Notes: generated by a model not told the origin, from the sequence alone. Positions 33,935-48,066 are shown, counted from the first letter of the stretch. The stretch is DNA of 64,000 bases from Cetorhinus maximus (GCF_964194155.1 NC_135916.1:1116001-1180000); one strand, 5' to 3'. Made by a program: numbers and translations.

Positions 33935-34150
33935 TTCTCTTATACCCTCAGGAGGAATGGTGGTGCGCTCAGAGCTGATTGTTTAATTGTAATATTCTTA
34001 AGATTATCGTCAAATTTTTCACATTGCCAATCAGATCTCTGCCTGACTCACCAATCTGGAGTCGCCACGAAATTGAATTCGGAAAGAAAGAGCGCCAAAT
34101 CGTCAGTTACTAACCGATTATAAATTTCATATTTGAAACTACCGCCAAAT
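33935..34150 (-). promoter_or_regulatory. H2A promoter / H2A-H2B divergent spacer
   Basis: Minus-strand TATAAG at about 33939-33944, CCAAT at about 34027 and 34051, GTCAGTTA at 34102, TTTGAA..CCGCCAAA at 34132-34149. Confidence 0.75.
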
Positions 34151-34674
34151 AATAGATCAAATGATAAATCGCACTTAAATCGGAATAGCTAATTCAGTTT
34201 TCAGACTAAGAATGTAATATTCACTCAATCTCTCACTAATTTGTCTGGTCTGCAGTTTACCTGTATCTGTTAATTTCTGATTGGGAGTGCGGAGTTTCAT
34301 GTATCTGACATCAAGCGGAAATTCAAGGCCCCAATTTAACAGATTCTAATCCTTCGTTTTATTCAATATTGAAAATCCCGCCGGCACATTTGTAAAACGA
34401 GGAGCTAATTTCATGCAGAAAATCGCCGTTACAGTTAACACAGTCAGTTCCAAACTATTAAAAGTTAGGCCTCCCTTATTGTACTATATCATCTTTAAAC
34501 GCAAATACCTCACTCGCGTTTAAAACCAGGAATCCATTCGTGTTTAAACTCGGACCTTTTTGCAGTCCTAACAGCCGGCGGAAATTCACGTTTACCGAGT
34601 GCTGCGGTTAAGCAATATCGGCCTGGATGTACAAGTGTGATATTATTTTAAAATAATAAAATTACATTATAATA

Positions 34675-34920
34675 TTGTATCCAGATTGCAGGTTATTAAT
34701 TCACTCCAATTTGAAGTGGTTCCGAATGAGTATTTATCTTGTTGCACGACTCGTGTTCGGTCTGCAGATGGAGCCAGGTCACAATAACTTGCACCTTATC
34801 GTTTCTGAACACACGTCGAGGAGCAACGGGCCTAATGCTGCTCTTGGAACTTGCCGAGCTCGCCTCCCGCCCCCCGTTAAAGAGGCAATGGTAGTGGCCA
34901 ACTCATCGCCCTCCATACTG
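34675..34920 (+). pseudogene. H2B: Decayed histone H2B fossil, divergent from H2A
   Basis: 34829 ggc cta atg ctg ctc ttg gaa ctt gcc gag ctc gcc = GLMLLLELAELA versus H2B RLLLPGELAKHA. HNN at 34780 versus HYN. YPD at 34678 versus HPD. Lies in the expected position and orientation. Confidence 0.6.
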
Positions 34921-34924
34921 ATCG

Positions 34925-43455: not shown

Positions 43456-45999
43456 TATTTGTGTCTGCAGGTGTGAATTTTTGTGAAAATCTGCATGACT
43501 GTGTGTGTCGGAGAGAAAGTGCAAGTTTGTTACTGTGTGCATTCATTTATGCATGTGTGTGTTTGTGCTTCTGTGTGCGTGAGGGCCTGTGTGTATGTTT
43601 GTGTGCATGTGTGTGATTTTTTGTGTGTGTGTGTTTGTGTATGTGTGCAACAGATGGTGTGCACATTTGTGTATATGTATGTTTGTCTGTGTGTGTTAGT
43701 GCAAGAGCCTGCGAGTGTGTGAATGTTTGTGTGGGAGTGTGCAGGGCTAATTTCCCATTTGTCTTTCTCTGGTACACGATGCAGCTTTAGAATTAATTTT
43801 AATGAAATTTAAGTGTCTACCCTGTGACCATTACCTATGTTGGAATTAATTCCCTAAATCTCAGTTATTATACTGTTTGTGGATCTCAAATTTCTCCTCT
43901 GTGTATATAACTCCATTATTATACATGTGAAGGTTTCTTCTGTACATAACATGTATCACATTCATGTTTCTGAAAACTATTTCTCCAATGCATTAATCTA
44001 TTACTGTTTCCTAGCTCTGTTGCAGATTTTAAAATGAAACTTTGCATTTATCAAAGACCGGTGTTATTCTTTTATTTAATGTGAACTAAGGTATAGCATT
44101 CAGGCTGCAACTCGGCAAAAGTATTTGTGAATGATAATGAGACGCTTGAACTCACATGCTGTGTGTGTCATATCTGATTGATTCAGTGTGTAATGATCTT
44201 ACGTTATGAATCATAGTGAGAATATTAAACCGGCATGTGTTGTGTATCCATGCCATATAAATTAAAATTACACTTTCTCTTTATTTTAGATATAGTATGA
44301 GATCTTTGGAGGGGGGTTTAATGTGTTCCTCTGTGAGAACCTAGGTACATTCTACAGAATAATTTTGTACATTTCAGTCTGTTGCACTATCTGTAGCTAA
44401 GACTGCACTCTTCTGAAATGAATGAGGTGCCTTTCAATCTGATAGTATTTGTGGGTTTGGACTGTGATTGATGGACCTACCTTTCTGCGGTGCTTAGTGA
44501 GTGTAAATTGGGGAGAAATATTCTGTCTCCCCTGTTGCATTTGACTGTTGCGTTGAACACGTCTATCTGAAACTTGAGATCAATGTGAATCTGATTCCTG
44601 CTCTCAGTGATGGTGGAACTGCTGTTCTGTCTGTGCTTTGAACAATAATGTACCTATGCCTACTCGAAGCATAGAGCTGCATGATTATTTAAGATGGGAA
44701 ATCTATAGCTTGGCATTGGGGCTCAAAGAGAAATGGTGGCCCAATGTTATATAATTTTGAGATTGCAGGTAAGTGTGTGTCTGTGCATGTGTGTATGTGT
44801 GTGTGTGTGTGCGTGTACATTTACCTGCCGGTCTTTAGTATGGGAGAAATTTATTTCTTCTCCACTATTTATATTCCGCTATGTGAATGTGGGATCACAC
44901 TGTATCTTTCACTTTTTAACATCTTACTATGGCGTTTATTTCTTTCCTGCCTGTGAATGGGGATTCCAAAATGCACCTAGTTATTTGTTGCTGTGTGACT
45001 GTCTGATTTGTTTTATGAATGTTTGTAATTGATTCTGGGCTTTACTCTGGATCATTGACTCTCTGTAATGCATTTGTGGCTATTATTCAGCACCTGTCAG
45101 TGCCTGATTTGTGAGTAAGCATCTTACTTTCACTGTTTCTGACATGTAATGCATATTTTTACTCATTGCCTCTTAGTTACAGGTATGTGGATTTGCATTT
45201 TATGTTCTGTATCTGCAATACTGTGAAATGTCAGTGTGATTCATTTTCCTGTTCTTTGTGTCAGGATCAGAAATGTGAGCATGGAAAAATTTGCTGAAAC
45301 TCAGGTTATTTCAAATGAGTGAGACTTTACTCATTTGCTGTCAATCCCTGGTATGAGAAGGTATGGTTTAGTCTATGCCCATCATATTCTTGTGTATGAG
45401 TATTGTCTTTTCCCATGGTCTGCATGTACCTTGTAGGTCATTGTCGATTTTGCTGTGAACTTGTCAGCCTGTATTACTTAAGTGTGATATTCACATTGCA
45501 GCTTTCAATTTAGTGTGTGAGCAAGGACCTCCCCCCACACTAACATCCCCCGCACTACCCCTGACTGTATCTCTTGGTCTTTCATACAGGCTGTTATGTT
45601 TTAGTCAGCAACTTATGGGTTTTGATGCATTTTCAGGTCTGACATTACTGTAGCTATCAACATCTGATTTCTCGGTACCCAACCTCTTCATATTTTGAAA
45701 AGTCTGTCATTGAAAAATTGATTATATTCAACACCTCTCTATCTCTGGTATGTGTCTGTGGTTTTATTATGTAAGTGTCTGCCCCTCTTACAGGAAGGTA
45801 ACTTTCTTCTGTATCTGTCAGTCCCTCCTATGAGAGTGGTGTTATGTTATTCACTGTACTTGTCAATATCTGCTTTGTGAGTTAAGTTTTAAACTTTCTT
45901 GTTTGTAGTGATCTGTCGATATAACTATTCTGAAAATATTGCTCTGGCATGTGATGTGTATGCGCGTCTGTATTAATGAATAAGTACTTTATCATTACC

Positions 46000-46590
46000 A
46001 GGAGCAGGTGATGGTGTAGTTGTATTGTCATTGGACTAATAATCTGGACAGCCAGGGTAGTGCTCTGGGTTGAAACCCTGACACTGCAGATGGTGGAATT
46101 TAAAATCAATAAAAATATGAATTGAATTAATGATCACCACGAAACCATTGTCGATTGTGGTAAAAACCCTTCTGGTTCACTAATATTCTTTAGAGAATGA
46201 AATCTGTCGTCCATGTACATGTGACTCTACACCCACAATTAAATGCCCTCTAAAATGGCCTAGCTAGCCACGCAATTGTAACAAATGGCAACAAAAAGAT
46301 CATCGACAAAGGCAATCTCAGCCCTGTTGATCCTGAGGGACAAGGGCAGCAGATCGATGAGAACACCACCACCTGGAAATTCCCCTCCAAGTGCCTCACC
46401 ATTCTGAGATGGAACTATGCTGTCATTGCTGGGACAAAAACCTGAAACTCCATTCCTAACAGCACTGTGGGTGTATCAACACCACAGGGACTGTAGCGGC
46501 TCAAGAAAGCAGCTTGTAAACCAACTTCTCAAGGGCAACTAAATGCTGTCCCAGCCAGCGAAGCAAACAACTCAAGGATGAATAAAATAA
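46000..46590 (+). mobile_element. Old tRNA-derived SINE (duplicate)
   Basis: Matches 8243-8833. Confidence 0.7.
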
Positions 46591-47499
46591 ATGTATGATA
46601 CTGTGTGGGATCTTTGGTGTTGAGTCTATTGCATTGCTTTATGAATGCTGGGTACATTCAAGGATTAATTCATTGAATTTCAATCAGCTTTATTTCCTGA
46701 TATTTAAATTACAGCCAATGTTCCATTCTTGTGACATGCATGGAGTGAGCTTCAATTTGATATTGGTTGTGAGTTTGGACTGAAATTGGTGGACCTGCCA
46801 TTCAGAGGTACTGAGTAGGAGTGTATTGTGATTATTCCAACCATCTCCCCAACCCCCGCCTCCCTTCTGAGCGTTTGACTATTGGATTGAGCACATGTAT
46901 CTGGTATGAATTCCATTTGATTCTGACTATTTCTGTCCGTGGTGACGGTGGAAATGATGTTCTGTCTGTATCTCTGCACTCTGTGAGTAATATCATACCT
47001 GCTGTCAGTAACAATGAGATGGCTGCACTTTTATTTTGGTTGGGAAATCAACAGCTTGAAACCGATCCCTTCATGTATTTGCCTAGAGGAAGAAACATAT
47101 CTCTTGAAAGTCAAGATCAGCTGAGGCTTTGAAAGAAAATAGATCAACGTAACCTGGCAACTGATAATCAATTTTTATAATGCTCTACAAATCGTAAAGG
47201 ACAATAAGAAGTACAGTCCCTGATTCCACTTCAGCACCCTGCTTCGGTACTTTTCAAACATTTGAGTAACATTCAGAAACAGTCCTGTCCTGTCCTCCTC
47301 CAAGGATGTCACTACCCGAGGGGACAGGTACATTGGTGCAGGTCAGGTTTCAATTTCCAGCTCCCATTGTAAGAGCCGTCAACAAAAACCAACAGCCGCT
47401 GCGACAATGTTTCTTTAACACTTATCACTTGAAAAGCTGGTGCCTGCGATGGGTGATATTTACATGATTGTTCCCCATCCTCACTGTCCGCCTGTTTCC

Positions 47500-48066
47500 A
47501 CTGTTCACTGTCCAAATGCCGACAAGTTGCATGAATCAGCAGCTATACTTGGAATATGCATTACAGGTTTGAGGGGAGAAAATCCCAATAGTTTTCAATT
47601 GCAGCTTGCTCAGGTTCTGTCTCCCTCAGCAGGGCCACACACAGCCCCAGAAAGGCCTCTCCCCGTCCACCCGCTCACTCCAAGTTCCGGAACACGTTCC
47701 CGCACCGCTCCGCCTCTTACAAACAGCCCCCGGTTCCCCCTGAACTTACCCCGAGTCAATGATGATTTCTGTGTCCACACTGACAAACCGGGGCCCTGCT
47801 GGAATCAGAACGCTGTTTACTCGCTTACCCGGGCCCTAAGATTTCCATTTCTATCTGTTTGAAACAAAGGTCTCCCGCTCACTGAATGAAAAACTTCAAT
47901 GGCGGAGTCTGGGAGAAGGGCAGCGCATGCGCTCTTCTAGTCAGGTCTGAGGAGTTGAATGAGGGCAGCAATGCGCATGCGCTTCTCTGGAATTTTACGT
48001 CACAGAATCAACATCATTTGCTCCTCCCCTCAGTCAATGTTCTCCAGCTTGAGCATCACAACTGGG
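47500..48066 (-). promoter_or_regulatory. NRF1/CRE promoter block (duplicate)
   Basis: GCGCATGCGC at 47923 and about 47973. Confidence 0.65.

Follow-up and report, generated by a model that had tools for sequence, protein, structure and literature searches.

A candidate NRF1-driven non-coding gene and a decayed minisatellite in the spacer of Cetorhinus maximus histone units without H2B

In newts, clusters of histone genes are separated by long tracts of satellite DNA. In oocytes of Notophthalmus, transcription is reported to read through from histone promoters into the satellite DNA (PMC11602149), and the satellite to be transcribed on both strands (PMC5615363; PMC2114352). Here we analyse a stretch of 64,000 nucleotides from Cetorhinus maximus (G000:C39:1116001-1180000, from a genome of 4.0 Gb), which is called the window, and in particular the histone gene unit at 33935..48066, where a T/G-rich array lies between the upstream region of an H2A gene and a CpG-rich block with NRF1-type sites. 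The newt histone/satellite locus with its oocyte read-through is the nearest described layout (PMC11602149, PMC5615363, PMC2114352, PMC12046345). As in the newt, repeated histone units have tandem-repeat DNA between them. Unlike in the newt, each unit contains its own repeat, a short and heavily decayed minisatellite of 4-13 kb that lies upstream of the histone promoters, where the newt repeat is downstream of the genes, and that ends in a putative NRF1-type promoter of its own.

Tandem histone quintets and quartets occur in Drosophila, sea urchin and the D. virilis group, and mixtures of the two are known from a review whose main text has no mention of shark, skate or satellite (PMC13525598). 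The present locus resembles the Drosophila and sea urchin arrays in having tandem replication-dependent genes with stem-loops, and differs from them in that the missing gene is H2B over 45 units, that a subset of units also lacks H2A, and that H2A and H2B stand head-to-tail. Histone and transfer RNA (tRNA) genes occur together on a small chromosome in a ray, according to a study whose consulted passages give no account of how a unit is built or of any minisatellite or promoter in the spacer (10.1101/2025.06.08.657570); tRNA genes predicted by ARAGORN are similarly found among the histone units of C32, the sister cluster of the one on C39. A literature search, with most subscription papers and preprint supplements outside it, gave no description of this spacer layout.

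CpG-island promoters yield divergent or upstream-antisense long non-coding RNAs (the axis of U1 and polyadenylation signals, U1-PAS). By analogy, the block at the far end of the array would work most like such a promoter with a labile long non-coding RNA, placed in a repeat-filled histone spacer. It shares with these systems an NRF1-type CpG island, labile exons and strand-asymmetric poly(A) and U1 signals; unlike them, it is present in at least 114 co-amplified copies in histone clusters, at 0.7-7 kb from the nearest histone start and with no common core promoter. Vertebrate clusters of PIWI-interacting RNA (piRNA) are a further comparison, being non-coding, containing transposon fragments and possibly using two strands, as here. 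The array is unlike them in that it has no antisense bias, has a low and lineage-specific transposon content, and undergoes CpG decay in its body.

Our preferred explanation, which we hold with modest confidence, is that the stretch is an ancestral histone spacer with a neutral minisatellite and a likely NRF1-driven, spliced non-coding gene. The spacer would be the old H2B-H1 spacer of a five-gene repeat, left when the C39 cluster lost H2B, and the NRF1-type sites at the far end of the array would drive a short spliced non-coding RNA back toward the array. The block is envisaged as an unmethylated germline promoter, and the predicted RNA would have its first exon in the CpG core and its second near 46999-47082, ending at poly(A) signals carried by the monomers on the minus strand. 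The promoter and the act of transcription would be what is selected, acting locally so that an island upstream of H1 or H4 stays open and free of methylation. They are more likely than the RNA sequence or the array to be under selection, because exon sequence and length drift while promoter and splice sites persist. A long plus-strand transcript is treated as incidental in this model.

All comparisons of copies and lineages were made within one genome, between C39, C32 and dispersed loci. The sequence used comprised C39 from 0.92 to 1.97 Mb in its entirety, 360 kb of the larger histone cluster on C32, 13 other loci bearing the repeat, zinc-finger loci totalling 110 kb, and, on C22, 20 kb surrounding two H3 genes. 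In the window, open reading frames (ORFs) and Rfam matches indicate tandem units of H1> H4> H3>, with or without <H2A (arrowheads give direction). The genes are intronless and have a 3' stem-loop, with six Rfam Histone3 matches at the gathering threshold in the window. Bases 1-16288 are duplicated at 37756-54042 with an identity of 98.9%. The unit of interest has an intact H2A gene with its stem-loop on the minus strand (33416..33879, coding sequence 33487-33879, Rfam Histone3 at 33416-33461). When 33000-51000 was searched with Rfam, only histone stem-loops passed, and three other matches were below gathering (E 0.03-0.3).

The initial annotation proposed that the array is a module that replaced H2B, and that H2B had been divergent from H2A. 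The arrangement on C32, namely H1> H4> H3> <H2A <H2B, array>, NRF1 block, then H1> or H4>, contradicts both proposals. Each of the 11 intact H2B genes found in the 340 kb of C32 that was scanned has an array at most 2.5 kb upstream. The array points away from the gene in nine of them, and the other two abut the far end of a neighbouring array. The arrays on C32 begin 0.2-2.3 kb upstream of H2B. The array did not replace H2B, because it is already present beside working H2B genes. On C39 there are 45 NRF1 blocks, or regular units, of which none has an H2B gene and 16 have an H2B tail; thus the five-gene quintet found in C32 units is absent from all 45. In these units the array abuts the upstream region of H2A, because the H2B gene is missing. 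Only three intact H2B genes were found in the 1.05 Mb of C39, at its edges and at the centre of an inversion. A single loss of H2B followed by amplification is the simplest history, and H2B must be supplied by other clusters.

In vertebrates H2A and H2B usually form a divergent pair. On C32, and also at C39's left edge, the two genes share a strand and stand head-to-tail with H2B upstream, and each has a CCAAT/TATA promoter of its own (C32: L032-L034, L041-L044, L080-L085 and L186-L205; C39:947571-952437). A motif that we take to be the octamer of H2B promoters is present in five of five aligned intact H2B promoters, and intact H2B has its own promoter. No such H2B-type octamer was found in 33880-34720 or 16950-17750. 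The bidirectional class of H2A/H2B promoter was ruled out here by the missing octamer, the missing 5' half of H2B, and the position of H2B on the strand of H2A. About 1 Mb of C39 (968000-1910000) consists of histone units, with 40 full-length matches to H3, 53 to H4 and 31 to H2A, and beyond about 1.69 Mb, in the distal part, the orientation is inverted.

The H2A promoter and upstream spacer (33880..34579, minus strand) have a TATA box facing H2A at about 33940, CCAAT boxes at 34027 and 34051, and a CpG observed/expected ratio of 1.09. The 700 bp upstream of the H2A gene in the window align to the C32 spacer that runs from H2A to where the H2B gene on its strand has its 3' end. The block had been noted as recurring in other units, and it is indeed repeated at 16989 and 54886 with 72% identity; in the units at 16985 and 54882 there is neither an H2A nor an H2B piece. 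Full orphan H2A promoters are retained in 13 of the C39 units that also lack H2A. They stay CpG-rich, with a CpG transition excess of 1.1x, a value to be read with the fact that the promoter adjoins H3, which is likewise without CpG decay. A TATA-like word facing the plus direction (34119 in the window) is present in 39 of 43 C39 promoters; it is specific to C39 and was not seen in the aligned C32 copies. Motifs at 34060-34160, upstream of H2A, are kept in both clusters, and presumably represent E2F sites and a cell-cycle genes homology region (CHR) element.

The H2B fossils described by the initial annotation, ending near 34920 and 37403, are genuine H2B-like pieces on the plus strand, except that they are tails rather than heads and are confined to 16 of 45 units. 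A profile made from four copies matches intact H2B with E 1.7e-9 (32 bits, against 0.6 bits for the best of 500 codon-shuffled decoys). The match is restricted to the 3' part of the gene (z 6.0-11.8 for the 3' half, -0.7 to 0.2 for the 5' half), and the pieces carry indels that break the frame, so that they represent an H2B pseudogene in the 3' part alone. A tblastn search of the window with H2B found no H2B piece; only DNA profiles detected them. The first tail (34640..34920, plus strand) belongs to a cassette that is cut off upstream, and the second is at 37190..37403 on the same strand. Array monomers begin some 20-25 bases past the old stop, about where a stem-loop had been expected, and no stem-loop is present there. 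The full H2A spacer directly precedes an H2B tail in only four units.

A relic of a tRNA-Gly(TCC) gene lies at 37033..37097 on the minus strand (nhmmer E 3.4e-5, and alignment). In the cassette this gene is about 100-150 bp upstream of the tail on the opposite strand, which leaves no space for an H2B promoter and 5' half. ARAGORN finds it intact at C32:12702347 and C39:1687030, and it is a relic in 15 C39 units. The cassette is common on C32, which has 34 of the best 40 of 127 candidate matches; others among these 40 are on unplaced contigs, C678 (five, listed together with C450's two). On C32 at 12600001-12800000, ARAGORN predicts 12 tRNA genes among the histone units and names the anticodon for ten of them (Met, Phe, Ser, Gly, Trp, Thr).

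The T/G-rich array keeps to one strand throughout and is a 46-bp minisatellite in a degenerate form of 40-41 bp. The existence of a degenerate 40-bp array, as proposed earlier, is borne out by de novo motif search, by core spacing and by a profile from a young array. The motif search gave 148-174 sites, with a total information of about 1,750 against 755-779 in three shuffles. In unit 33935..48066, 14 of the 27 core spacings between 30 and 56 bp are 40-41 bp. The profile was made from a young 46-bp array on C11, in which 8 of 8 spacings are 46 bp, and has 53 matches in the window, all 53 on the plus strand, and none in the reversed control; the modal spacing on C32 is also 46 bp (70 of 219). 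The monomers are head-to-tail and within the 10-100 bp of a minisatellite. Signals of periodicity are weak, with a lag-40 autocorrelation of z up to about 3.7, and 6-mer distance histograms giving z 1.5-4.3 at 38-42 bp over long arrays. Tandem Repeats Finder (TRF) reported no tandem array of about 40-bp period in the window, and an exact two-monomer pattern with a spacing of 26-29 bp had no match in the genome, the period of young arrays being later found to be 46.

The array is in three parts, all on the plus strand and recognised by motif and profile. The first (34940..38330) has monomers of 40-46 bp and is split by the second H2B-tail cassette; the second is at 39680..41690; and the third (43280..45990) is mixed with TG microsatellites found by TRF. 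Two retrotransposon fragments, one on each strand (38371..39668, query matches), separate the first two parts, and a plus-strand fragment with a reverse-transcriptase remnant (41690..43280, Pfam RVT_1 E 3.5e-11) separates the second from the third. We take these to be CR1-like, and a dispersed repeat at 45990..46590 on the plus strand to be SINE-like (short interspersed element). Both kinds of mobile-element fragment had been noted earlier, in both orientations; for the Penelope-like piece also noted, Penelope-like queries found no fragment in the array of this type of unit, and such a fragment occurs in 7 of 19 arrays examined.

The core has a short resemblance to the linker codons of zinc fingers, and zinc-finger clusters are abundant in this genome. 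Block and array might in principle descend from a C2H2 zinc-finger gene, as what is left of its promoter and its coding array after decay. We regard this as scarcely credible, and the origin was rejected: with a profile built on 65 real zinc-finger repeats the best E was 0.28; the 110 kb of zinc-finger loci contained no array (best E 0.51), NRF1 site or BLAST match; and the period is 40-46, not 84.

An exact 20-mer of the array has 166 matches in the genome against none for the control, and 95 of 100 among the matches listed are in the C32 histone cluster. An array 24-mer has 51 matches over 11 contigs, 21 of them on C32. Of 13 array loci examined outside both clusters, eight have decayed pieces of a histone unit and five do not, and none has the NRF1 block. 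The family is thus enriched at histone loci and not confined to them. Decayed relics made of array and H1-upstream sequence, some with H3 fragments, are dispersed at C11:340-370 kb, C11 1.49-1.51 Mb, C16:6.5-7.2 Mb, C36:11.12 Mb, C81 and C236; one of them lies near what we assume to be a receptor-like ORF (C11:360129-360830). Young, near-perfect 46-bp arrays whose surroundings are free of histone genes and relics for several kb were seen at L051, C236:237558-238110, C263:389437-389946 and C81:46180-46830. The young array on C11 sits among other large minisatellites close to the end of the contig.

The array looks neutral, and the monomer is under no detectable selection. The proportion of variable sites is similar in array and transposon inserts (0.14 vs 0.12 in long units, 0.42 vs 0.49 in short units). 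In an unbiased test of motif constraint, for which one lineage served to pick the sites and two others to score them, divergences were 0.24/0.24, 0.30/0.26, 0.16/0.17 and 0.16/0.24, all with p>0.2, two of the six comparisons having no aligned sites. A first result, of 127 variable sites against 203 expected, was discarded as biased, since the sites had been picked on the majority sequence. Within unit families, CpG transitions in the array are 3.1-5.7x background, a decay like that of methylated DNA. There is no asymmetry of A>G over T>C in the array (ratio 1.02, p 0.88), a null result that two-way transcription would also yield. One of six mutation classes gave p 0.03 in within-group totals, and a small spacer control gave p 0.008 for T>C over A>G.

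These results bear on the functional proposal of the initial annotation, that a long plus-strand RNA from the histone promoter meets an NRF1-driven antisense RNA, to give piRNA or small interfering RNA (siRNA), or a scaffold for the histone locus. There is some support for it. The T/G strand has only 0.4-0.6 poly(A) signals per kb, compared to 3.2-4.1 on the other strand (34 minus-strand signals vs 15 expected, and 46 vs 16, in arrays), and this asymmetry would let a plus transcript run far and cut a minus transcript short. The array is flanked at either end by CpG-rich sequence without CpG decay, including the 13 promoters that have lost H2A, and the plus-facing TATA-like word and the C32 arrays leading away from H2B would fit such a transcript, as would the read-through from histone promoters into satellite DNA reported for newt oocytes (PMC11602149). 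The scarcity of poly(A) signals on the T/G strand, along with an H2A promoter that is CpG-rich even where H2A is absent, makes a long plus-strand transcript across the array compatible with the sequence. Against the proposal stand the unconstrained monomer, the absent A>G/T>C asymmetry, the methylation-like decay of array CpGs, and the existence of the array at 13 loci without an NRF1 block, five of these without a histone relic. The strand signals are not independent, because all descend from one monomer. The AATAAA said to end the full-length arrays is present at 9446 and 24895, and is AATAAG at the matching place in unit 33935..48066; over 45 units it is at that place in 25, missing in 19 and elsewhere in one, and so is not conserved. 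Transposon pieces cover 0-28% of 19 arrays with four queries, and are on both strands and lineage-specific; the enrichment of antisense transposons expected of a piRNA cluster was not found in this set. A strong plus-strand acceptor inside the array (36505-36527 and paralogues) was rejected, being kept neither at the orthologous place nor in C32. On balance we consider a functional convergent pair improbable. It is similarly doubtful that each unit has carried, since before the two big clusters split, a module in which an NRF1-driven spliced RNA faces a long T/G-strand RNA from the back of the H2B/H2A promoter. If it did, the RNA pair, made from more than 100 copies, would amount to a germline RNA compartment or a source of small RNA at histone loci. 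The 1-Mb cluster would then have dropped H2B and yet retained the module, even with an orphan H2A promoter driving it.

The NRF1-type block, by comparison, looks selected. It has two palindromic sites at 47923 and 47973 (47923..47982), which we take to be NRF1 sites. Of the 44 C39 copies aligned, all 44 retain both, and they also occur in C32 copies at 55-57% identity; the first is degenerate in the most diverged C39 copy. The sites persist within a surrounding 100 bp whose diversity is like that of the array. Next to them on the array side is a conserved CpG-rich core (47500..47900, minus strand), which contains candidate first-exon donors with GT at 47882, 47828, 47749 and 47678 (motif retention 30-43 of 44). 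Diversity is 0.03-0.04 at 47600-47899, about a fifth of the 0.14-0.32 at 46600-47499. The core has a CpG observed/expected ratio of 0.67-0.88, and its CpG transition ratio is 0.5, which is not raised; with the retained NRF1-type sites, these values are indirect signs of an active, unmethylated promoter. One 20-mer of the core is matched exactly at 114 places in the genome, and the 100 matches listed first all fall within the two histone clusters, which supports the earlier suggestion that an opposing promoter was amplified together with the histone genes.

The suggested splice signals pointing back into the array likewise survive in part, in that minus-strand donor motifs at 47671-47882 and a conserved acceptor/donor pair accompany the two NRF1-type sites; the scoring of splice sites is heuristic. 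Among 1,724 alignment columns from eight lineages, read on either strand, the best-kept acceptor (47083) and the best-kept donor (46997) share the minus strand, with 84 nt between them. This is the candidate non-coding exon, 46999..47082, with acceptor AG 47084-47083 and donor GT 46998-46997. In C39 copies the acceptor is kept in 44, and the donor pattern is found in 45 of 45 by regular expression, yet there is GC at the homologous donor in six. The exon length is 80-87 nt across C39, and in one lineage the acceptor AG is shifted by 4 nt. A short spliced non-coding RNA transcribed from more than 100 copies is a likely candidate product.

The same block could instead be purely cis-regulatory, an enhancer or upstream promoter module for H1 or H4, with splice-like signals due to chance, no stable RNA and an inert array. 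The block is always upstream of H1 or H4 (by about 0.65-1.75 kb in C32 and 2-7 kb in C39), and its NRF1 sites are palindromic. No conserved RNA structure was found in the core (one of 39 pairs compensatory, covariation term unfavourable); the core has frame-breaking indels, and, among 11 ORFs scanned, those outside transposons matched no Pfam family, with one sub-threshold match in a transposon piece. The exon donor would also come free with the monomer, and the first-exon donors are not the same in the two clusters. Against this explanation stand the top acceptor and top donor, which share a strand and bracket an exon-sized gap of 80-87 nt in C39, the AG that moved by 4 nt in one lineage and was not lost, and the position of the most conserved part on the array side of the NRF1 sites. 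We judge it rather unlikely.

Several observations nevertheless weigh against a spacer with an NRF1-driven spliced gene. Several C32 blocks are partial and lack NRF1 sites, and the block is only 55-57% identical between C39 and C32, no higher than pieces of array (about 61%). The low diversity of the core could reflect gene conversion. The acceptor is weak or lost in two of the eight lineages, as scored with approximate splice weights taken from general knowledge, and the exon donor coincides with a GT supplied by the monomer. The donors GGGTAAGT and GGGTAAGC are specific to C39, so that first-exon donors turn over between the clusters. The T/G strand resembles the strand of a gene body, with few poly(A) signals and, in C32, 21 U1-like sites against 10.9 expected, an excess that also favours the convergent pair. 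Finally, the H2B tail faces away from H2A in both clusters (at C32:12.70 Mb, from an H2A fragment), and it may descend from a gene that was once the divergent partner of H2A.

A further possibility is that the block is a far-upstream, cell-cycle-independent promoter of H2B (on C32) or H2A (on C39), with the array spliced out as an intron. The NRF1-driven direction matches that of H2B and H2A in every intact arrangement seen. On C32 (L032, about 4150-4200), an ATG in strong context stands right before the conserved donor, with at least 79 matches; C39 has TTG at this position (47671-47690). We find this very unlikely, given that the array strand concerned has 3-4 poly(A) signals per kb, that the block is retained in units without downstream H2A or H2B, and that no strong acceptor was seen by eye before the histone start codons.

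Two other features of the window were observed. A 225-bp inverted duplication, 98% identical and with its copies 1.6 kb apart, is present in the far-upstream region of H1, between the NRF1 block and H1 (10405-10628 / 12207-12432 and 48161-48385 / 49964-50188). At 54020-54573, about 120 bp, accompanied by a 22-bp duplication, are inserted into an H3 copy just past the start of the gene, and no ATG-initiated H3 ORF was found at this interrupted copy.

Overall, the observation made in the initial annotation is partly confirmed, and its interpretation is partly supported. Even on a modest reading, this is an unusual layout for vertebrate histone genes: H2A and H2B stand head-to-tail, and the lack of H2B over a 1-Mb array must be made up for by another chromosome. 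The spacer also offers a concrete candidate for a multi-copy non-coding gene within histone clusters, with a predicted start region, splice junctions and binding factor. Should the convergent module prove true, it would link vertebrate histone loci to a dedicated output of non-coding RNA, beyond the read-through of newt oocytes.

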